Below, piece after piece: positions 35,801 to 44,728 of a stretch of DNA of 44,728 nucleotides. Each line of letters opens with the position of its first letter. Within the stretch, counting starts at the first letter, position 1. Where the stretch lies: sequence record MZ997840.1; one strand, 5' to 3'. The DNA is from Escherichia phage ULINTec6. The position numbers and the translations under genes are program-made. The notes under the pieces were generated by a model that ran no database searches, had not been told where the DNA came from, and saw nothing but the letters and a program-made list of their open reading frames with translations.

Positions 35801-36147
35801 AGAAACTATCCCCTAAAGGGTTGGCTTTTGGTGCTATGGGTATGATGAGTACAACTGCTGTGTTTAGCTTAGGTGGAGACTTCTTAGGCGGCCTAGGTGT
35901 TCTCCCTTCTGAGTTAGTACAATCCCGTTATGAGGCTGGCTTTCAGACTAAGGGTTTGATAGACCAAATACCACTAGTAGGTGTTGGTCAAGATGCATAT
36001 CGTTTAGCAGATTCTATAACTAAATATGCAGAGGGTGATACAGAAGGTGTAGATGTGGCACGTAGGGCTTTACGCTTAGTGCCTCTAACTAATGTAATAG
36101 GAATCCAGAACGCATTGCGTTATGGCTTAGATGAACTGGAGGATTGA
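32839..36147 (+). CDS. Large internal virion (core) protein
   Basis: 1102 aa, largest structural protein, at the position of T7 gene 16. Confidence 0.75.
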   Translation: MEQDINTNWAGYVQSTPEPFSIEAAPVSAPTIRQRNELQEQVLEAKADADILGAIGAAFQNEWLAFGGKRWYDRATADFTPQPDFEIQPEQREALRFKYGTDMMQTITEGVRSEDELNFRIQNADEDLERNKRIAQAGWAGSVATIGAAVLDPVGWVASIPTGGAAKAGLVGRAVRGAIAAGVSNAAIESVLVQGDMTRDLDDIMVALGSGMAMGGVIGAVARGRATKLSEQGDDRAASVVRSADAGDQYVRAVADDSIGAMRVKDAEVLTEGAFDISSKGEDLLKTLQREGNAIDMTPRRWAGTLSALGTVVHSSQDASVRGLGARLFESPQGLGAQKASASLMQNTNLNRLKSADMNRFNDGFDLWLKENNINPVAGHTNSHYVQQYNEKVWEAVRIGMNESTPKSIRMAAEGQQAMYREALALRQRSGEAGFEKVKADDKYMPDIFDSMKARRQFGMHDKEDIIELFSRAYQNGSRKVPKEVADDIARAQVNRVADATLTGQLSFEKAMSGQTKAEYEALMRKAGFSDEEIEKMVEALDNKETRDNISNRAKMSLGLDVTQEYNGIRMRDFMNTNVEELTDNYMKEAAGGAALARQGFSTYQAALSAIDLVERNARNAAKDTKAHAQFEAESAKIRQSEPDYKKAQEKIEELKKQLKLKEKDEAAGLAIDEEIRQMREGLRLIMGKSIDSNPQDLSTKMLRRGRDITGVLRLGQMGFAQLGELANFMGEFGIAATTIALGKQFRFTSKALRSGDGFFRDKNLAEVERMVGYIGEDNWLTTKGARPDEFGDVTTVRGMMVHFDQSMNSIRRAQTNLSLFRMAQGSLERMTNRQIALSFIDHLEGKKVIPQKKLEELGLTQEFMTNLQKHYDANSKGSGLLGFDTMPYAMGETLANAIRRKSGLIIQRNFIGDEGIWMNKALGKTFAQLKSFSLVSGEKQFGRGIRHDKIGLAKKTAYGFALGSIVYAAKAYVNSIGREDQDEYLEEKLSPKGLAFGAMGMMSTTAVFSLGGDFLGGLGVLPSELVQSRYEAGFQTKGLIDQIPLVGVGQDAYRLADSITKYAEGDTEGVDVARRALRLVPLTNVIGIQNALRYGLDELED

Positions 36148-37109
36148 TGAGTTATACTTTCACAGAACATATAGCCAACGGTACGCAAGTAACCTATCCC
36201 TTTAGCTTTGCTGGTAGGGATAAAGGTTATCTTCGTGCCTCAGATGTGATAGTGGAATCTCTTCAAGGTAACACTTGGATTGAGGTTACATCTGGCTGGC
36301 AACTAACTGGCACGCACCAGATTACTTTTGATGTAGCACCAGTTGCAGGTTTGAAGTTCCGTATTCGAAGGGAGGTACAAAAGGAATATCCATACGCTGA
36401 GTTTGACCGTGGTGTTACCTTGGATATGAAGTCTTTAAATGGTTCTTTCATTCATATACTGGAGATTACACAGGAGTTACTTGACGGGTTTTATCCAGAA
36501 GGATACTTCATTAAACAGAATGTAAGCTGGGGCGGCAATAAGATTACTGATTTGGCTGATGGCACAAATCCGGGAGATGCAGTAAATAAAGGGCAGCTTG
36601 ATGCCATTGACAAGAAGCATACAGATTGGAACACCAAACAGGATATTGAGATTGCTGGCCTTAAAGCAGGTATGACTTCTGGTATTGCGCACAGAACTAT
36701 CCCTTGGTACACGATCGCCCAAGGAGGTGAGGTTTCCGTAAAACCTCCTTATGAATTTCAAGATGCACTAGTTTTCCTTAATGGGGTCTTGCAACACCAA
36801 ATCATAGGCGCATACTCTATAAGCAGCAACACTATCACTTTCGCAGAGCCACTTGTGGCTGGCACAGAGGTGTATGTGCTGGTTGGTAGTCGTGTGGCTA
36901 CATCTGAACCTAATATTCAGTTAGAGTTGAACTTTGACTTAGTAGAAGACCAACAAGTAGTACAGATTGGCTCTGCATTTAAGTACATTGAGGTCTACCT
37001 TGATGGATTATTACAACCTAAACTTGCTTATCAGGTAGACGGTGACATTGTTACTTTCTCAGAAAGAGTACCAGAATGCCGGATGACTGCTAAGATTATC
37101 ACAGCATAA
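36147..37109 (+). CDS. Tail fibre adapter protein (homologue of the N-terminal tail-attachment domain of T7 gp17)
   Basis: N-terminus YTFTEHIANGTQVTYPFSFAGRDKGYLRASDVIV and ITDLADGTNPGDAVNKGQLD parallel the T7 gp17 N-terminal domain; no long receptor-binding region. Confidence 0.7.
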   Translation: MSYTFTEHIANGTQVTYPFSFAGRDKGYLRASDVIVESLQGNTWIEVTSGWQLTGTHQITFDVAPVAGLKFRIRREVQKEYPYAEFDRGVTLDMKSLNGSFIHILEITQELLDGFYPEGYFIKQNVSWGGNKITDLADGTNPGDAVNKGQLDAIDKKHTDWNTKQDIEIAGLKAGMTSGIAHRTIPWYTIAQGGEVSVKPPYEFQDALVFLNGVLQHQIIGAYSISSNTITFAEPLVAGTEVYVLVGSRVATSEPNIQLELNFDLVEDQQVVQIGSAFKYIEVYLDGLLQPKLAYQVDGDIVTFSERVPECRMTAKIITA

Positions 37110-37118
37110 GGAGGTGGG

Positions 37119-37313
37119 ATGATTAACTCCGAACTGGTAGATAGTGGTGTGAAGCTTGCGCCACCTGCATTAGTCTCAGGTGGGTACTTCCTCGGTATCA
37201 GTTGGAATGATTGGGTTCTTATAGCTACATTCATTTATACTGTATTACAAATTGGCGATTGGTTTTATGTAAAATACAAAGCTAGGAGAGATAAGCGTGA
37301 GCGTACACAATAA
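37119..37313 (+). CDS. Putative holin (small membrane protein with charged C-terminus)
   Basis: 64 aa with hydrophobic segments and a highly charged tail (KYKARRDKRERTQ); at the T7 gene 17.5 position. Confidence 0.55.
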   Translation: MINSELVDSGVKLAPPALVSGGYFLGISWNDWVLIATFIYTVLQIGDWFYVKYKARRDKRERTQ

Positions 37314-37596
37314 ACATGCAGCTACAGAGGACGAGGTTGGCATTCTGCATGGTGCTATTACCAAAATCTTTAATAAGAAAGCACAGGCAATACTGGACAC
37401 TATAGAAGGAGATCCAGATGCAGCACTGCATTTAGTGTCTGGTAAAGACATTGGAGCTATGTGTAAGTGGGTTCTTGATAATGGTATTACCGCTACACCT
37501 GCTGCACAGCAGGAAGAGTCCAAGTTATCTAAGCGCCTCAAGGCTATCCGAGAGGCATCCAGTGGTAAGATAATTCAATTCACTAAGGAGGGCTGA
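37297..37596 (+). CDS. Terminase small subunit
   Basis: 99 aa, immediately upstream of and overlapping the large terminase; GTG start after AGGAGAG RBS; assignment by position. Confidence 0.6.
   Translation: MSVHNKHAATEDEVGILHGAITKIFNKKAQAILDTIEGDPDAALHLVSGKDIGAMCKWVLDNGITATPAAQQEESKLSKRLKAIREASSGKIIQFTKEG
37389..37410 (+). promoter_or_regulatory. Phage promoter embedded in the small terminase CDS (AATACTGGACACTATAGAAGGA)
   Basis: Near-full consensus inside the coding sequence. Confidence 0.55.
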
Positions 37597-39494
37597 TGGC
37601 TAAGGCAAGAGAGTCACAAGCGGAGGCTCTTGCCAGATGGGAGATGCTACAGGAGTTACAGCAGACCTTTCCGTACACATCGGAAGGTTTGCTTCTCTTT
37701 GCAGACACAGTTATCCATAACTTGATTGCAGGCAACCCTCATCTGATTCGTATGCAGGCTGACATCTTGAAGTTCCTATTCTACGGACATAAGTATCGCC
37801 TCATCGAAGCGCCTCGTGGCATCGCTAAGACAACATTATCAGCAATCTATACAGTCTTCCGTATCATACATGAACCTCACAAACGTATCATGGTGGTATC
37901 CCAAAATGCTAAGCGAGCAGAGGAAATCGCAGGTTGGGTAGTTAAAATCTTCCGTGGCTTAGACTTTCTTGAGTTTATGCTGCCGGATATCTACGCTGGG
38001 GACCGTGCATCCGTTAAGGCGTTCGAGATTCATTACACCCTACGTGGTAGTGATAAGTCTCCCTCTGTATCCTGTTACTCAATCGAAGCAGGTATGCAGG
38101 GTGCTCGTGCTGATATTATTCTAGCGGATGACGTAGAGTCGATGCAGAATGCTCGTACGGCAGCGGGCCGTGCCTTGCTTGAGGAACTGACTAAGGAGTT
38201 TGAATCTATCAACCAGTTTGGGGATATCATTTACCTTGGTACGCCTCAGAACGTAAACTCTATCTACAACAACCTACCTGCTCGTGGTTACTCTGTTCGT
38301 ATCTGGACTGCGCGTTATCCTTCAGTAGAGCAAGAGCAATGTTATGGTGACTTCCTTGCACCTATGATTGTTCAAGATATGAAGGACAACCCAGCACTTC
38401 GCTCAGGGTACGGGTTGGATGGTAATAGTGGTGCACCTTGTGCCCCTGAAATGTATGATGATGAAGTCCTGATTGAGAAGGAAATCTCTCAGGGTGCGGC
38501 TAAGTTCCAGCTTCAGTTCATGCTTAACACTCGCATGATGGATGCAGACCGCTACCCGCTTCGCTTGAACAACCTTATCTTCACTTCATTCGGTACTGAG
38601 GAAGTCCCTGTGATGCCTACGTGGAGCAACGACTCCATCAACATCATTGGAGATGCACCGAAGTATGGCAATAAACCTACAGACTTCATGTATAGACCTG
38701 TGGCCCGTCCTTATGAATGGGGGGCTGTTACCCGCAAGATTATGTATATCGACCCAGCGGGTGGTGGTAAGAACGGAGATGAAACAGGCGTGGCTATAGT
38801 CTTTCTGCACGGCACATTCATTTACGTGTATCAGTGCTTCGGTGTGCCAGGCGGATACCGTGAATCGTCCCTGAATCGCATTGTGCAGGCCGCAAAGCAG
38901 GCGGGTGTTAAAGAGGTATTCATTGAGAAGAACTTTGGTCATGGCGCGTTTGAGGCCGTTATAAAGCCATACTTTGAACGAGAGTGGCCTGTAACTCTGG
39001 AAGAGGATTACGCCACAGGACAGAAAGAGTTGCGTATCATTGAGACGCTGGAGCCACTCATGGCGGCCCACAGGCTCATCTTTAACGCAGAGATGGTGAA
39101 ATCGGACTTTGATTCGGTACAGAACTATCCGCTTGAGCTACGCATGTCCTACAGTCTTTTCAATCAAATGTCGAACATCACGATTGAGAAGAACAGCCTC
39201 CGGCACGATGACCGCCTAGACGCTCTGTATGGCGCTATACGGCAATTAACTTCTCAGATAGACTATGACGAGGTTACACGGATTAATCGCCTCAGAGCGC
39301 AGGAGATGCGCGATTACATCCATGCTATGAACACACCTCACCTCCGTAGGGCTATGCTCTATGGAGATTATGGCACTGAGCGAAGAGTAACCAACACTTC
39401 CGTGGCTATGCAGCAAAGAGTGTACGGTCAGAATTACAGGAGTAAATCGGCCAACCGAAATACACTTTCTGCAAGGATTTCAAGGACTTATTAA
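37596..39494 (+). CDS. Terminase large subunit
   Basis: 632 aa; Walker A-like EAPRGIAKTT; late position as for T7 gene 19. Confidence 0.9.
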   Translation: MAKARESQAEALARWEMLQELQQTFPYTSEGLLLFADTVIHNLIAGNPHLIRMQADILKFLFYGHKYRLIEAPRGIAKTTLSAIYTVFRIIHEPHKRIMVVSQNAKRAEEIAGWVVKIFRGLDFLEFMLPDIYAGDRASVKAFEIHYTLRGSDKSPSVSCYSIEAGMQGARADIILADDVESMQNARTAAGRALLEELTKEFESINQFGDIIYLGTPQNVNSIYNNLPARGYSVRIWTARYPSVEQEQCYGDFLAPMIVQDMKDNPALRSGYGLDGNSGAPCAPEMYDDEVLIEKEISQGAAKFQLQFMLNTRMMDADRYPLRLNNLIFTSFGTEEVPVMPTWSNDSINIIGDAPKYGNKPTDFMYRPVARPYEWGAVTRKIMYIDPAGGGKNGDETGVAIVFLHGTFIYVYQCFGVPGGYRESSLNRIVQAAKQAGVKEVFIEKNFGHGAFEAVIKPYFEREWPVTLEEDYATGQKELRIIETLEPLMAAHRLIFNAEMVKSDFDSVQNYPLELRMSYSLFNQMSNITIEKNSLRHDDRLDALYGAIRQLTSQIDYDEVTRINRLRAQEMRDYIHAMNTPHLRRAMLYGDYGTERRVTNTSVAMQQRVYGQNYRSKSANRNTLSARISRTY

Positions 39495-39516
39495 TTACTG
39501 GACACTATAGAAGGAA
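39494..39516 (+). promoter_or_regulatory. Phage RNAP promoter after the terminase (AATTACTGGACACTATAGAAGG)
   Basis: Full consensus; followed by an AT-rich repeat region and an 8-bp perfect hairpin (gggtgtac-tcct-gtacaccc). Confidence 0.8.
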
Positions 39517-39654
39517 GGCCCAGATAATAAGAGAAATAACAAGGATAATATAGGTTAACCTAGGGTATATAGGTATGCCTTAGTATGGGTGTACTCCTGT
39601 ACACCCTATTCCTTACTTCCTTACTATACTCACATAATAGGAGAGAGAAAAAAA

Positions 39655-39933
39655 ATGTCTAATAGTTATAGCACACAACCCCTTACAGGTAAGTCTGCTC
39701 GTAAGCAGATACAACCTGTGAGTGAAGCCCTGATGCTTCCTGTAGTTTACGAGGACACTGTTGAGAAGAAAGGTGATGTTATTAATGATGCCACCAAATC
39801 AGGTAAGCAGAAAGGAGCCATGGTGTGTCTTGATACACATGATACACTGGTTATTGCTATCGCAGTTGATGGCAAAGAAGATTCCAATTGGCTGACCACG
39901 TTATTAGCGGTCACTACTATTACCCCAGCTTAA
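39655..39933 (+). CDS. Hypothetical protein, member A of a tandem paralogous pair
   Basis: AGGAGAG RBS then ATG 39655; shares MSN..TG...SGKQKG.MV...L.IAIA...TP.A pattern with the next gene. Confidence 0.55.
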   Translation: MSNSYSTQPLTGKSARKQIQPVSEALMLPVVYEDTVEKKGDVINDATKSGKQKGAMVCLDTHDTLVIAIAVDGKEDSNWLTTLLAVTTITPA

Positions 39934-39945
39934 GAGGAGAATTAC

Positions 39946-40233
39946 ATGTCTAATTATGGAAACGCAGGTACTGTTACTGGTCAAGCTTTTCGAGTAAAAA
40001 CTGTACAAACCACTGCAACGGCAATCCCTTTGCCTATTGTTGCTGAAGCAGACCTTAAGAAGAAAGATCACCCTATCAACATTAAACACCTATCTGGCAA
40101 ACAGAAAGGCTCCATGGTTGCTGTAGAGAAAGCAGACAACTCCTTGTACATCGCTATTGCACGTGGTAGTGAACCAACTGACCCTTGGGATGCAACCACT
40201 ATGGAGGAGACACCTGTAACCCCTATAGCTTAA
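39946..40233 (+). CDS. Hypothetical protein, member B of a tandem paralogous pair
   Basis: GAGGAG RBS; clear similarity to 39655..39933. Confidence 0.55.
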   Translation: MSNYGNAGTVTGQAFRVKTVQTTATAIPLPIVAEADLKKKDHPINIKHLSGKQKGSMVAVEKADNSLYIAIARGSEPTDPWDATTMEETPVTPIA

Positions 40234-40242
40234 TTGTAACAG

Positions 40243-40599
40243 ATGAGGTCGGTGGTGCTTAATAGATACTTCAAGCGACGCGAGTTCGCTTGCCGTTGTG
40301 GATGCGGTACATCCACTGTTGATGCTGAGTTACTACAGGTAATCACAGATGTGCGTGAGCACTTTGGCGCACCTGTAGTTATTACCTCTGGTCATCGCTG
40401 TGCAAAGCACAATGCCAACGTAGGTGGAGCAAAAGGTTCCATGCATCTTACTGGTAAGGCTGCTGACATTAAGGTACAAGGTATTACACCTTACCGTGTA
40501 TGGTCTTACCTAACAGCACGATACCCTAATAGGTATGGTATTGGGTCTTACCCTAACTTCACTCACATTGATGTACGAGATGGGTGTGCACGATGGTAA
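40243..40599 (+). CDS. Peptidase M15-type zinc peptidoglycan hydrolase (putative endolysin)
   Basis: SGHRCAKHN, SMHLTGKAADI and FTHIDVRD motifs typical of M15 D-Ala-D-Ala carboxypeptidase / L-Ala-D-Glu peptidase-like enzymes. Confidence 0.7.
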   Translation: MRSVVLNRYFKRREFACRCGCGTSTVDAELLQVITDVREHFGAPVVITSGHRCAKHNANVGGAKGSMHLTGKAADIKVQGITPYRVWSYLTARYPNRYGIGSYPNFTHIDVRDGCARW

Positions 40600-40707
40600 G
40601 ATGTATTGAATGGTGCGAGCGCATGGTTACTCAAGCTGCCGAGGATGGCAACTATGATGACTGGAAGAATTACTCTGACTTGTTAGCTCAATGGAAAGGG
40701 AGATGCA

Positions 40708-40857
40708 ATGAAAAAGCTGTTTAAGTCTAAGAAAGTGGTAGGTGCGCTGGTTGCACTGGTGATTGCTCTTGTTTCTGTAGGTCTTGGCGTAGACCTAGGT
40801 GGAGGTACGGAAGGTTCCGTCACTGACGTGGTATGCCAAGTAATCACCTGTGAATAA
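40708..40857 (+). CDS. Small single-pass membrane protein (49 aa; holin/antiholin-like)
   Basis: GGAG RBS; MKKLFKSKKVVGALVALVIALVSVGLG; below ORF-track cutoff. Confidence 0.35.
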   Translation: MKKLFKSKKVVGALVALVIALVSVGLGVDLGGGTEGSVTDVVCQVITCE

Positions 40858-41071
40858 GGTGCTTGAGGTGGTGGCAGGCCTTATTGGCCTGCTGCTTGCC
40901 GCTAAGAATAAGAAGGAAGAGAAGGAGGCACAAAGTGAGGCGAATCATGCTAGCGACAATCCTGCTGATTGGTTCGCTGATCACTTCAGGGTGTCAGACG
41001 GCGTTACCAGAGAATCCAAAGGTAAAGCCCCTGAAGCCGACGCTGACGGCAGTTTACGAGGTGGACGATAA
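40850..41071 (+). CDS. Putative i-spanin (Rz-like)
   Basis: N-terminal TM helix VLEVVAGLIGLLLAA then charged domain; contains the o-spanin start in the +1 frame; exact start uncertain. Confidence 0.5.
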   Translation: MNKVLEVVAGLIGLLLAAKNKKEEKEAQSEANHASDNPADWFADHFRVSDGVTRESKGKAPEADADGSLRGGR

Positions 41072-41144
41072 AGTCTGCTTCAGTAAGCCTGACGCTACAA
41101 AATTAGGTCTGTACATTCTCTCGCTAGAAAGCGGGTATAATTAA
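40947..41144 (+). CDS. Putative o-spanin (Rz1-like outer-membrane lipoprotein)
   Basis: Lipoprotein signal with lipobox LITSGC, proline-rich mature part QTALPENPKVKPLKPTL; starts inside the i-spanin ORF in another frame and extends past it. Confidence 0.6.
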   Translation: MLATILLIGSLITSGCQTALPENPKVKPLKPTLTAVYEVDDKVCFSKPDATKLGLYILSLESGYN

Positions 41145-41173
41145 TACATAGTTTTATGTATCAGTGTCTTACG

Positions 41174-41196
41174 ATTTACTGGACACTATAGAAGAG
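41174..41196 (+). promoter_or_regulatory. Phage RNAP promoter upstream of the tailspike module (ATTTACTGGACACTATAGAAGAG)
   Basis: Full consensus. Confidence 0.8.
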
Positions 41197-41275
41197 ATAA
41201 GATAGTGCCGTTCTTTTGAGCGGCCTATTACTAGCCAATCTTCATAGTGAGGGTTGGGAAGTAATAGGAGATTAT

Positions 41276-41611
41276 ATGGCTAAGTTAACTAAACCAAAGA
41301 CAACTGGCTTACTACACGGAGACACTGTACTAGCTACATTGTTAGATAATTTACTATCTAAAAGGCGTGTTACCTTTGAAGGTGTAGTTACAAGTGAAGA
41401 TACTAAAATTGAGATAGAAGTACCTTCAACGGGAGATTTAGATTCTTCGTGGGCATCGCTTGTATCACTAAGTACACCTGCACTTTGTACAGCTTGGATC
41501 ACTAAAGTGTCAGATACAAGATTAGAAGTACATGTGTTCCATACAGCACAAGTTGAAATAGACATAGAGGTAGATGTTTACGTCCTAGGTAAACACACTG
41601 TCAGTGCGTAA
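41276..41611 (+). CDS. Hypothetical protein (111 aa) upstream of the tailspike
   Basis: AGGAG RBS then ATG 41276; no recognisable motifs. Confidence 0.5.
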   Translation: MAKLTKPKTTGLLHGDTVLATLLDNLLSKRRVTFEGVVTSEDTKIEIEVPSTGDLDSSWASLVSLSTPALCTAWITKVSDTRLEVHVFHTAQVEIDIEVDVYVLGKHTVSA

Positions 41612-41678
41612 GCACTGCTTTTCGCGCAACTTTTCTTAAAGGTTATCATGATGGTAGCCTTTCAGAAAAGGAGGTTAC

Positions 41679-44114
41679 ATGATTCAAAGACTAGGTTCTT
41701 CATTAGTTAAATTCAAGAGTAAAATAGCAGGTGCAATCTGGCGTAACTTGGATGACAAGCTCACAGAGGTTGTGTCGCTTAAAGACTTTGGAGCCAAAGG
41801 CGATGGTAATACAAACGACCAAGATGCAGTAAATGCAGCGATGGCTTCAGGTAAGAGAATTGACGGTGCTGGTGCTACTTACAAAGTATCATCTTTACCT
41901 GATATGGAGCGGTTCTATAATACACGTTTCTTATGGGAACGTTTAGCGGGTCAACCTCTTTACTATGTGAGTAAAGGTTTTATCAATGGTGAACTCTATA
42001 AAATCACGGATAACCCTTATTACAATGCTTGGCCTCAAGACAAGGCGTTTGTATATGATAATGTGATATATGCACCTTACATGGGTAGCGACCGTCACGG
42101 TGTTAGTCGTCTGCATGTATCATGGGTTAAGTCTGGTGACGACGGTCAAACATGGTCTACCCCAGAGTGGTTAACTGATCTGCATCCAGATTACCCTACA
42201 GTGAACTACCATTGTATGAGTATGGGTATATGTCGCAACCGTCTGTTTGCCATGATTGAAACACGTACTTTAGCCAAGAACGCACTAACCAATTGTGCAT
42301 TGTGGGACCGCCCTATGTCTCGTAGTCTGCATCTTACGGGTGGTATCACTAAGGCTGCAAATCAGCGATATGCAACAATACATGTACCAGATCACGGACT
42401 ATTCGTTGGCGATTTTGTTAACTTCTCTAATTCTGCGGTAACAGGTGTATCAGGTGATATGACTGTTGCAACGGTAATAGATAAGGACAACTTCACGGTT
42501 CTTACACCTAACCAGCAGACTTCAGATTTGAATAACGCTGGAAAAAGTTGGCACATGGGTACTTCTTTCCATAAGTCTCCATGGCGTAAGACAGATCTGG
42601 GTCTGATCCCTCGTGTCACAGAGGTGCATAGCTTTGCTACTATTGATAATAATGGCTTTGTTATGGGCTATCATCAAGGTGATGTAGCTCCACGAGAAGT
42701 TGGGCTTTTCTACTTCCCTGATGCTTTCAATAGCCCATCTAATTATGTTCGTCGTCAGATACCATCTGAGTATGAACCAGATGCGTCAGAACCATGCATC
42801 AAGTACTATGACGGTGTATTATACCTTATCACTCGTGGCACTCGTGGTGACAGACTTGGAAGCTCTTTGCATCGTAGTAGAGATATAGGTCAGACTTGGG
42901 AGTCACTAAGATTTCCACATAATGTGCATCATACTACTTTACCGTTTGCTAAGGTAGGAGATGACCTTATTATGTTTGGTTCAGAACGTGCAGAAAACGA
43001 ATGGGAAGCAGGTGCACCAGATGATCGTTACAAGGCATCTTATCCTCGTACCTTCTATGCACGATTGAATGTAAACAAATGGAATGCAGATGATATTGAA
43101 TGGGTTAACATCACAGACCAAATCTATCAGGGTGACATTGTTAACTCCAGTGTAGGGGTAGGTTCTGTTATAGTTAAAGACAGCTACATTTACTATATCT
43201 TTGGTGGTGAAAACCATTTCAACCCAATGACTTATGGTGACAACAAAGATAAAGACCCATTTAAAGGGCACGGACACCCTACTGATATATACTGCTATAA
43301 GATGCAGATTGCAAATGACAATCGTGTATCTCGTAAGTTTACATATGGTGCAACTCCTGGTCAGGCTATACCTACTTTCATGGGTACTGATGGCATCCGA
43401 AATATTCCTGCACCTTTGTATTTCTCAGATGACATTGTTACAGAGGATGCTAAAGTTGGACACTTAACACTTAAAGCAAGCACAAGTGCCAATATACGGT
43501 CTGAAGTGCAGATGGAGGGTGAGTATGGCTTTATTGGCAAGTCTGTTCCAAAGGATAACCAAACAGGTCAACGTTTGATTATTTGTGGTGGCGAAGGTGC
43601 TTCATCTTCTTCAGGTGCACAGATAACTTTGCACGGCTCTAATTCGAGTAATGCTAAGCGTATCACTTATAACGGAAATGAGCACCTATTCCAAGGTGCA
43701 CCAATCATGCCTGCTGTAGATAACCAGTTTGCTGCCGGTGGACCTAGTAACCGATTCACTACCATCTACCTAGGTAGTGACCCTGTTACAACTTCAGATG
43801 CTGACCACAAGTACGGTATCTCTAGTATTAATACCAAGGTGTTAAAGGCTTGGAGTAGGGTTGGTTTTAAACAGTATGGTTTGAATAGTGAAGAAGAGAG
43901 GAACCTTGATAGCATACACTTCGGTGTCTTGGCTCAGGATATTGTAGCTGCTTTTGAAGCTGAAGGATTGGATGCCATTAAGTATGGAATTGTGTCCTTC
44001 GAAGAAGGTAGGTATGGTGTAAGGTATAGTGAAGTTCTAATCCTAGAGGCTGCCTATACTCGCCATCGTCTTGATAAATTAGAGGAGCTGTATGCCACTA
44101 ATAAAATCAGTTAA
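41679..44114 (+). CDS. Tailspike protein with Asp-box (sialidase-like) motifs and C-terminal intramolecular chaperone domain; likely capsule-depolymerising endosialidase
   Basis: 811 aa; Asp boxes SGDDGQTWS and SRDIGQTWES; N-terminal DFGAKGDGNTNDQDAV; C-terminal SDADHKYGISSINTKV...IHFGVLAQDIVAAFEAEG resembles the autocleaving chaperone domain of phage tailspikes/endosialidases. Confidence 0.8.
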   Translation: MIQRLGSSLVKFKSKIAGAIWRNLDDKLTEVVSLKDFGAKGDGNTNDQDAVNAAMASGKRIDGAGATYKVSSLPDMERFYNTRFLWERLAGQPLYYVSKGFINGELYKITDNPYYNAWPQDKAFVYDNVIYAPYMGSDRHGVSRLHVSWVKSGDDGQTWSTPEWLTDLHPDYPTVNYHCMSMGICRNRLFAMIETRTLAKNALTNCALWDRPMSRSLHLTGGITKAANQRYATIHVPDHGLFVGDFVNFSNSAVTGVSGDMTVATVIDKDNFTVLTPNQQTSDLNNAGKSWHMGTSFHKSPWRKTDLGLIPRVTEVHSFATIDNNGFVMGYHQGDVAPREVGLFYFPDAFNSPSNYVRRQIPSEYEPDASEPCIKYYDGVLYLITRGTRGDRLGSSLHRSRDIGQTWESLRFPHNVHHTTLPFAKVGDDLIMFGSERAENEWEAGAPDDRYKASYPRTFYARLNVNKWNADDIEWVNITDQIYQGDIVNSSVGVGSVIVKDSYIYYIFGGENHFNPMTYGDNKDKDPFKGHGHPTDIYCYKMQIANDNRVSRKFTYGATPGQAIPTFMGTDGIRNIPAPLYFSDDIVTEDAKVGHLTLKASTSANIRSEVQMEGEYGFIGKSVPKDNQTGQRLIICGGEGASSSSGAQITLHGSNSSNAKRITYNGNEHLFQGAPIMPAVDNQFAAGGPSNRFTTIYLGSDPVTTSDADHKYGISSINTKVLKAWSRVGFKQYGLNSEEERNLDSIHFGVLAQDIVAAFEAEGLDAIKYGIVSFEEGRYGVRYSEVLILEAAYTRHRLDKLEELYATNKIS

Positions 44115-44241: not shown

Positions 44242-44640
44242 GCAGGTTAATATCTTAGTGTACACAAGGGCAGACTTAGGTTTGCTCTTAGTGTCATCAA
44301 AGGAGGTTGTAGGTATGTTATCGTTGTTGTGTATACTCAGTGATGTCCTAGGTCGTAAGAGGTACATTCTTAGTGAAGACCAAATAAGGGACGAGAAGAT
44401 ACGGAGGTCGCTCACAAAGTAACCAAAGTCAAAATTTTGATATAGGCGTGTGTGGGGTGTCTCGCCCTCGCCCTCGCCGGGTTGCCCCCATAGGGTGGCC
44501 TGAGGGAATCCGTCTTCGACGGGCAGGGCTGATGTACTCCTTGGATAGTACAAGGGAGGCGGAGGGAACGCCTAGGGAGGCCTAGGAATGACTTAGTGGT
44601 GGACAAGGTGATTACCTTAGTGAAGCCTCTTAGTGCATTC
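44240..44640. repeat. Right-end region with CTTAGTG short repeats and a GC-rich CGCCCT tandem motif
   Basis: cttagtg at about 44247, 44283, 44594, 44617 and 44628; cgccctcgccctcgcc at about 44462; same motif family as the left end. Confidence 0.45.
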
Positions 44641-44728
44641 CTGAGGCCATTCAGGGCGTTTATGAGGTATTGACAGGGTGGATGGGTGTGGGCTATCTGT
44701 TCGTTTCGTTCACTCCGCTTGCGCTACG

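Follow-up and report, generated by a model that had tools for sequence, protein, structure and literature searches.

The receptor-recognition region of Escherichia phage ULINTec6: an SP6-type adapter, a K1-type endosialidase tailspike and a short first-slot protein

The right-hand part of the Escherichia phage ULINTec6 sequence (record MZ997840.1; 44,728 nucleotides (nt), the whole of which we refer to as the window) encodes an adapter protein, gp37, a protein of 111 amino acids (aa), gp46, and a large tailspike, gp47. The open reading frame (ORF) map, megablast matches and the annotation of the best matches place the window as a near-complete Vectrevirus genome of the K1E/K1-5 group (Autographiviridae, Molineuxvirinae). 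Among 50,697 phage records searched by megablast there was no identical record; the closest are ~94-96% identical over ~90-93% of the query. The window is syntenic with K1E, K1-5, Mt1B1_P10 and ULINTec7 at 92-96% DNA identity, and the order adapter, holin, terminase, lysis genes, promoter, gp46, gp47 and genome end is collinear in these four phages and in ULINTec4. In K1E, K1-5 and SP6, the adapter gp37 joins two spikes to the tail (PMC6966330, PMC6872550, PMC5380687), with first-slot proteins docking through the peptide MAKLTKP and second-slot spikes through MIQRLGSSLVK (PMC6872550). Both peptides are present verbatim in the window, the former in gp46 and the latter in gp47. The elements of the region are as follows.

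36147..37109, + strand: gp37, adapter ORF, 320 aa; N-terminal half (aa 1-160) T7-gp17-like, C-terminal half (aa 161-320, nt 36627-37106) of K1-5 type
41174-41196, + strand: SP6/K1E-type phage RNA polymerase promoter, ATTTACTGGACACTATAGAAGAG, matching the 16-nt core at every position and preceding the 111-aa ORF
41276..41611, + strand: short gp46, 111 aa; docking peptide MAKLTKP (nt 41276-41296), short helix, five-strand beta domain (aa ~26-104)
41602..41670, + strand: two conserved RNA hairpins at the gp46-gp47 spacer (67 nt); RNA fold of -29.9 kcal/mol, z -3.47
41602-41617, + strand: hairpin 1, GUAA loop, followed by CUUUUC
41630-41670, + strand: hairpin 2, 3' arm extending to the gp47 Shine-Dalgarno sequence
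41679..44114, + strand: gp47, predicted endosialidase tailspike (Pfam and PDB matches), 811 aa; last large gene before the terminal-repeat region
41679-41711, + strand: gp47 docking peptide MIQRLGSSLVK
42132-42155, + strand: Asp box 1, SGDDGQTW (aa 152-159; motif S-x-D-x-G-x-T-W)
42876-42899, + strand: Asp box 2, SRDIGQTW (aa 400-407; same motif)
43797-44111, + strand: gp47 chaperone domain (aa 707-811), after the predicted self-cleavage at Ser706 (nt 43794-43796)

The adapter, the tailspike and their transcription

Read from the ATG at 36147 to the stop at 37109, gp37 comprises 320 aa plus the stop codon, its ATG overlapping the gp36 stop by 1 nt. A TTG at 36144 would extend the protein to 321 aa; K1E, K1-5 and other relatives annotate the ATG. 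The original prediction of a stand-alone 321-aa adapter was thus right in its coordinates and in the separate nature of the protein, while its length had counted the stop codon. The T7 gp17-like tail-attachment domain that it placed here is also found, if marginally: aa 3-153 score 27.5 bits against Pfam PF03906, barely over the cut-off of 25.2, and direct pairwise alignment of the gp37 N-terminus with K1F gp17 yields no match. The protein additionally matches DUF4183 in Pfam, PHROG 2710 (expect value (E) 9e-147) and, over its full length, the solved structure of a ‘tail adaptor protein’ (PDB 7Y22, E 5e-81), and is 98.8% identical to its counterpart in Mt1B1_P10, 97.5% to that in K1-5 and 74% to that in K1E. 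These matches support the assignment of gp37 as a stand-alone SP6-type adapter.

The separate 811-aa tailspike near the genome end was likewise borne out, and homology searching returned the K1-capsule endosialidases that the original prediction had named. Pfam assigns gp47 to End_N_terminal, End_beta_propel, End_beta_barrel and End_tail_spike (endosialidase domains PF12217, E 9e-223; PF12195, 2e-47; PF12219, 2e-84; PF12218, 4e-34), together with Peptidase_S74 (PF13884; aa 706-763, E 5.5e-10), which corresponds to the anticipated C-terminal chaperone-like domain. Both predicted Asp boxes are present. The protein is 97-98% identical to gp47 of K1E (97.3%), K1-5 and Mt1B1_P10, matches the K1F endosialidase structures 1V0E/3GVL with 1325 bits, and its chaperone domain matches structure 3GW6 (E 7e-58). 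The key catalytic residues of the K1F enzyme are H350, R549, E581, R596 and R647 (PMC12632334); upon alignment to K1F gp17 all five are identical in gp47 (H140, R339, E371, R386 and R437). Furthermore, gp47 S706 aligns with the K1F cleavage serine S911 at the start of the Pfam chaperone domain, and self-cleavage after Ser706 is predicted. The catalytic parts of gp47 and K1F endoNF are 83.9% identical, with the catalytic residues, both Asp boxes and the cleavage serine kept; the two differ in that in K1F the enzyme is fused with a T7-type anchor of its own at the N-terminus (1064 aa) and there is no separate adapter, and in that the chaperone domains are only 35% identical. Taken together, these results support the identification of gp47 as a K1 endosialidase (endo-alpha-2,8-sialidase), and nothing contradicts the identification of either adapter or endosialidase.

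The core of the phage promoter is matched 12 times across the window, in each case on the plus strand, against 0.5 expected by chance, and the flanks of these matches align to one common consensus. The copy at 41174-41196 is unchanged in K1E and is also conserved in L006, a metagenomic contig and a distant relative. The view that the tailspike lies behind its own promoter did not hold: the sole phage-type promoter in this part of the genome precedes the 111-aa ORF. Since the gp46-gp47 interval contains neither a phage-type nor a sigma-70-type promoter, both genes would form a single transcription unit served by the promoter at 41174-41196. Across 41-44.7 kb, a scan for sigma-70 promoters and terminators gave counts no higher than in shuffled sequence. 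Further upstream, core matches with two mismatches each lie at 37395-37410, inside the small-terminase gene, and at 39500-39515, shortly after the large-terminase gene, and the late region would therefore carry several internal promoters.

The spacer between gp46 and gp47 is 100% identical in K1E and ULINTec4, 94-96% identical in phages with two full spikes and 89.6% identical in L006, as against only 73.5% for the ORF. The position of hairpin 1 is annotated as a terminator in LL11 and KAW1A4500. The hairpins may act in attenuation, RNA processing or translational control.

Selection on gp46 and its origin

The 111-aa ORF had been noted to sit where related phages may carry a second tailspike, and comparison of the 41.2-41.7 kb region among relatives bears this out. 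The slot holds alternative spikes between conserved borders: a 632-aa K5-lyase-type spike in K1-5, ULINTec7, LL11 and VEc3, and a 479-aa spike in Mt1B1_P10. The gp46 of the window is 91.9% identical to that of K1E and matches PHROG 15083, a group with no assigned function; the exact sequence is absent from the contig index. Its family is small: among 5.8e9 proteins it forms 4 clusters, and the 27 phage records that have it are all of K1 phages. At the DNA level, homology to the two-spike phages extends through promoter and leader into the first ~9-11 codons of gp46, breaks off there and resumes ~29 nt before the stop codon. In L006, the borders are 90-92% identical, and such conserved non-coding borders around the gp46 body are likely substrates for cassette exchange.

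Several observations bear on whether gp46 is a functional protein. The ratio of nonsynonymous to synonymous substitution rates (dN/dS) lies at 0.17-0.44 for every pair of sequences compared, in the first half of the gene as well as the second. The frame is intact at 111 aa in 16 of 18 distinct phage genomes and in three metagenomic contigs; the exceptions are mutPK1A2 and SHAK7704, the latter uncertain as its match is listed under an unrelated name. The homologue P0004, encoded in L006, is likewise exactly 111 aa long at 58% identity (synonymous divergence dS about 0.7), and precedes a different second spike of 663 aa. By these measures gp46 is evidently under purifying selection, and presumably functional rather than decaying. 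It could instead be regarded as a decaying, dispensable leftover, of whatever origin, that persists between conserved regulatory borders. The family is tiny, no enzymatic domain was detected, and two laboratory-propagated relatives carry independent A-run frameshifts. Set against this, dN/dS is low in every pair and the frame is intact even in the copy that has diverged to 58% identity; we regard this explanation as unlikely. The frameshifts themselves are single-nucleotide changes that cut gp46 after ~44-48 aa in mutPK1A2 (contig L013, 301-632) and in the K1A fragment (contig L014, 297-630), the depositor of the former remarking that a ‘deletion ... results in premature termination’. They suggest that the phage can do without the beta domain in laboratory culture.

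Pfam revealed no enzymatic domain in gp46, and an AlphaFold2 (AF2) model (mean predicted local distance difference test (pLDDT) score 63) returned nothing significant in a fold search of the PDB (best E 0.38). Against BFVD, the sole match at E <= 0.001 was a member of the same family, followed by two uncharacterised phage proteins (E 1.9e-3). A weak but recurring likeness to H-type lectin and fibre-tip domains was seen in the fold search (template-modelling score about 0.5-0.6), with no lectin signal in Pfam at E up to 10; this model-based likeness can be taken as a lead only.

With regard to origin, reviews describe K1E gp46 as small, ‘probably truncated’ and non-enzymatic, and cite a proposed truncation of the K5 lyase gene kflA (PMC6966330, PMC5380687). 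By this account, gp46 would be a C-terminally truncated K5 lyase without function of its own, left behind when a K5 phage gained an endosialidase. Indeed, gp46 occupies the lyase slot, it shares 41% identity with the lyase N-terminus over its first ~45 aa, and its single PDB match is 2X3H (E 0.007). The resemblance is, however, limited to the docking peptide and helix. Hidden Markov model (HMM) matches of gp46 to the K5 lyase and to the first spikes of LL11, VEc3 and Mt1B1_P10 extend from positions 1-23 up to 1-45, the part common to all first-slot proteins and present also in the unrelated spikes of Mt1B1_P10 and P0005 (below). We looked for lyase remnants inside the gp46 gene by blastn (word size 7), tblastx and tblastn against the first-spike genes of K1-5, ULINTec7 and Mt1B1_P10, and found nothing past the first ~24-45 codons; residues 46-111 match the lyase genes of K1-5 and ULINTec7 in no frame, either by tblastn at E up to 10 or by tblastx. 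Purifying selection, and a length kept at 58% identity, also speak against a functionless fragment, and the gp46 body shows a remote match to the C-terminal end of spikes from a different family. At the sequence level, truncation of a K5 lyase appears largely refuted, and we consider it very unlikely.

That different family was reached by an exhaustive HMMER search of 1.84 billion representatives with gp46, in which a single relative proved informative, P0005 (493 aa; Logan contig L015; E 3.3e-5). The P0005 gene takes the place of gp46 in an SP6-like cassette, and the protein begins with MSKLTKPTTTGILH, followed by a pectate-lyase-like beta-helix, with ~380 aa separating the anchor from the C-terminal domain. 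Residues 21-105 of gp46 align with its final ~85 residues (aa 405-490) at 22% identity. The HMM domains score 14.7 bits at the N-terminus and 23.5 bits at the C-terminus, where the maximum over 1000 shuffles was 7.9 bits, and profile-profile comparison by hhalign gave a probability of 93% (E 2.8e-7). The full-length AF2 model of P0005 was poor overall (pLDDT 47), and the comparison was confined to its C-terminal domain, which is modelled with confidence (pLDDT 74-89). In the hhalign register all five strands of the gp46 model fall on strands of this domain, and a helix at about residues 19-25 is common to both models. P0005 resembles gp46 in its slot and in its type of docking peptide and helix, probably also in a remotely homologous C-terminal ~85-aa beta domain, and differs from it by the beta-helix that gp46 lacks. 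A second candidate relative, the He_PIG immunoglobulin-repeat protein P0006 (E 3e-4, six stretches), was dismissed as a repetitive beta-rich match.

We therefore favour, with some reserve, an origin of gp46 as the anchor and C-terminal domain of a P0005-type spike minus its enzymatic body, that is by internal deletion and not as a truncated lyase; our confidence goes no higher because the homology is remote and there is one full-length relative. A stronger version, in which gp46 is a selected non-enzymatic mini-fibre, with docking peptide and a lectin-like tip salvaged by internal deletion from a depolymerase spike, we regard as doubtful. Were it true, gp46 could bind a secondary receptor reversibly or lend stability to the adapter complex, and its universal docking peptide would let it move between adapter alleles, the window being the first case on a K1-5-type adapter.

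Small chaperone genes beside fibre genes are common in phages, and the original prediction had offered, besides a remnant, a tailspike-associated factor as an identity for the 111-aa ORF. A non-structural factor that is not virion-bound, such as an assembly chaperone for the endosialidase, would fit a gene directly upstream of the spike gene and co-transcribed with it. gp46, however, shares its N-terminal docking peptide with first-position spikes that are bound to the virion; an intramolecular chaperone is already built into the endosialidase; the L006 homologue accompanies an unrelated second spike; K1-5, with the same endosialidase, lacks the short protein; and reviews of cryo-electron microscopy of K1E put gp46 on gp37 (PMC6966330). 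We give this possibility the least credence of all. Of the two identities first offered, the remnant-like one is in keeping with the second-spike slot, and the factor is disfavoured by the docking peptide and by the example of K1-5.

Very probably, then, the region is the receptor-recognition apparatus of a K1-capsule-specific Vectrevirus, including gp46 as a non-enzymatic mini-spike. A number of points weigh against this. Incorporation of gp46 into the virion is reported in reviews of Leiman et al. 2007 (PMC6966330). The 22% identity to P0005 comes from one full-length protein together with a profile-profile score, and the relatives of P0005 (P0007-P0012) did not rise above shuffles in a plain HMM comparison. 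The gp46 model is only moderate in quality, and deletion, as opposed to insertion, is a direction that we infer. Finally, gp46 may be dispensable, as the frameshifts in mutPK1A2 and K1A remove its body.

Adapter alleles and mosaicism

The adapter exists as two alleles whose difference is confined to the C-terminal half, at about 50% identity. Comparison of the window with K1E by halves reveals 97.5% identity in the N-terminal half and only 49% in the C-terminal half; for the latter, identity rises to 99.4% with ULINTec7, 97.5% with Mt1B1_P10 and 95.6% with K1-5, and is about 60% with SP6. Among public genomes with a short gp46 and an assayable adapter, the K1E-type half was found in 24 of 24 records (18 distinct phages), as well as in one assembled Logan genome. 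Conversely, a short gp46 occurs in none of 43 records with the K1-5-type half, and the six phages with that half whose annotations were examined (seven records) all have a full-length first spike. The window pairs a K1-5-type adapter C-terminal half (36627-37106) with a K1E-type short gp46 (41276-41611).

It is tempting to speculate that the K1E-type allele is specialised for a short partner. We ruled this out: the phage encoding P0005 (L015) has a K1E-type adapter allele and, like SE29, pairs it with a full-length first spike. The usual pairing would therefore reflect ancestry and not adaptation to size. We read the window as most probably a recombinant of different lineages, in keeping with pervasive mosaicism. 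As a gene combination, the K1-5-type adapter half with short gp46 is new; apart from this and the revised origin of gp46, the module is ordinary.

Mosaicism is apparent throughout 36-44.7 kb, which a sliding comparison resolved into a patchwork whose nearest relative changes from segment to segment. Within the endosialidase gene, 43400-44000 (the end of the stalk and the chaperone domain) is 67-70% identical to ULINTec7, the remainder of gp47 being 95-100% identical; this divergence indicates probable module exchange within the tailspike gene itself.

Further features of the region were noted alongside these genes. The large-terminase gene (37596-39494; 632 aa) is intact, whereas in K1E and SE29 it is interrupted by a homing-endonuclease gene; an extra HNH gene between the small- and large-terminase genes in Mt1B1_P10, VEc3 and L010 is absent from the window. 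The genes gp41 (39652-39933) and gp42 (39946-40233) are tandem paralogues (39% identity, both PHROG 2725) encoding proteins of ~93 aa with no Pfam match, and the ‘acetyl-CoA acetyltransferase’ label carried by their RefSeq relatives looks like a propagated mis-annotation. At the right end, 44440-44728 is non-coding and GC-rich, contains a (GCCCTC)x3 run and is in part 76-88% identical to the direct terminal repeat annotated in Mt1B1_P10. No duplicated terminal repeat is present within the window; the left end has no copy of the right-end repeat, and the window therefore holds at most one terminal-repeat copy. A further conserved ORF overlaps the end of the tailspike gene and is annotated at the same position in K1-5, ULINTec7, ULINTec4 and ACG-C91:

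44092..44241, + strand: gp48, 49-aa ORF, overlapping the final 23 nt of gp47; PHROG 2423, E 1.3e-21

A model for the module and its place among known systems

A model can be drawn up in which the structural steps are taken from reviews on K1E and K1-5. Trimeric gp37 would attach to the tail through its T7-gp17-like N-terminal half and offer two docking sites, of which gp46-type proteins would use one via MAKLTKP and gp47-type spikes the other via MIQRLGSSLVK. Co-transcribed with gp46 from the promoter at 41174-41196, gp47 would fold with the aid of its C-terminal intramolecular chaperone, freed by self-cleavage after Ser706, and would degrade the polysialic-acid K1 capsule so that the phage reaches the outer membrane. 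As a mini-spike, gp46 would consist of docking peptide and helix joined directly to the C-terminal beta domain, the central beta-helix depolymerase having gone, and would most likely fill the first docking site of the adapter without adding to host range.

The closest comparison is with K1E (NC_007637), which shares with the window its gene order, gp47 (97.3%), gp46 (91.9%) and an identical promoter and gp46-gp47 spacer, and differs from it in the adapter C-terminal half and in the split large-terminase gene. K1-5 (AY370674) and ULINTec7 have the adapter type of the window (97.5% in K1-5; C-terminal half 99.4% in ULINTec7), a gp47 at 97% identity, and docking peptides, promoter and spacer as in the window, but have a 632-aa K5 lyase in the first slot instead of the 111-aa protein; the predicted host range of ULINTec6 is therefore K1 only. 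SP6 has the same architecture of an adapter (gp37) with two spikes (gp46 and gp47), and an adapter similar to that of the window (C-terminal half about 60%; window adapter against 7Y22, E 5e-81). The SP6 spikes, in contrast, target O-antigen and not capsule (PMC6966330).

Beyond these phages, metagenomic SP6-like cassettes encode uncharacterised second-slot spikes of 663 aa (L006, 557-2548) and 626 aa (L015, 9633-11513). Their N-termini are variants of MIQRLGSSLVK, namely MLQRLSSKLVR and MALQRLGSSLVK, and show how far the docking code tolerates change.

The original prediction for the module is supported, and the system that it describes has already been published for K1E, K1-5 and SP6. An adapter with interchangeable spikes is the standard model for capsule-specificity switching in podoviruses, and this design serves as a template both for engineering the host range of phages and for therapeutic depolymerases directed at neuroinvasive E. 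coli K1. In the window, the design is confirmed for one more natural isolate. What is new is that the short protein at the second spike site seems to derive, by internal deletion, from a spike outside the lyase family and to be maintained by selection, and that it is combinable with the other adapter allele. Both points refine, and do not change, the picture of cassette recombination in these phages.

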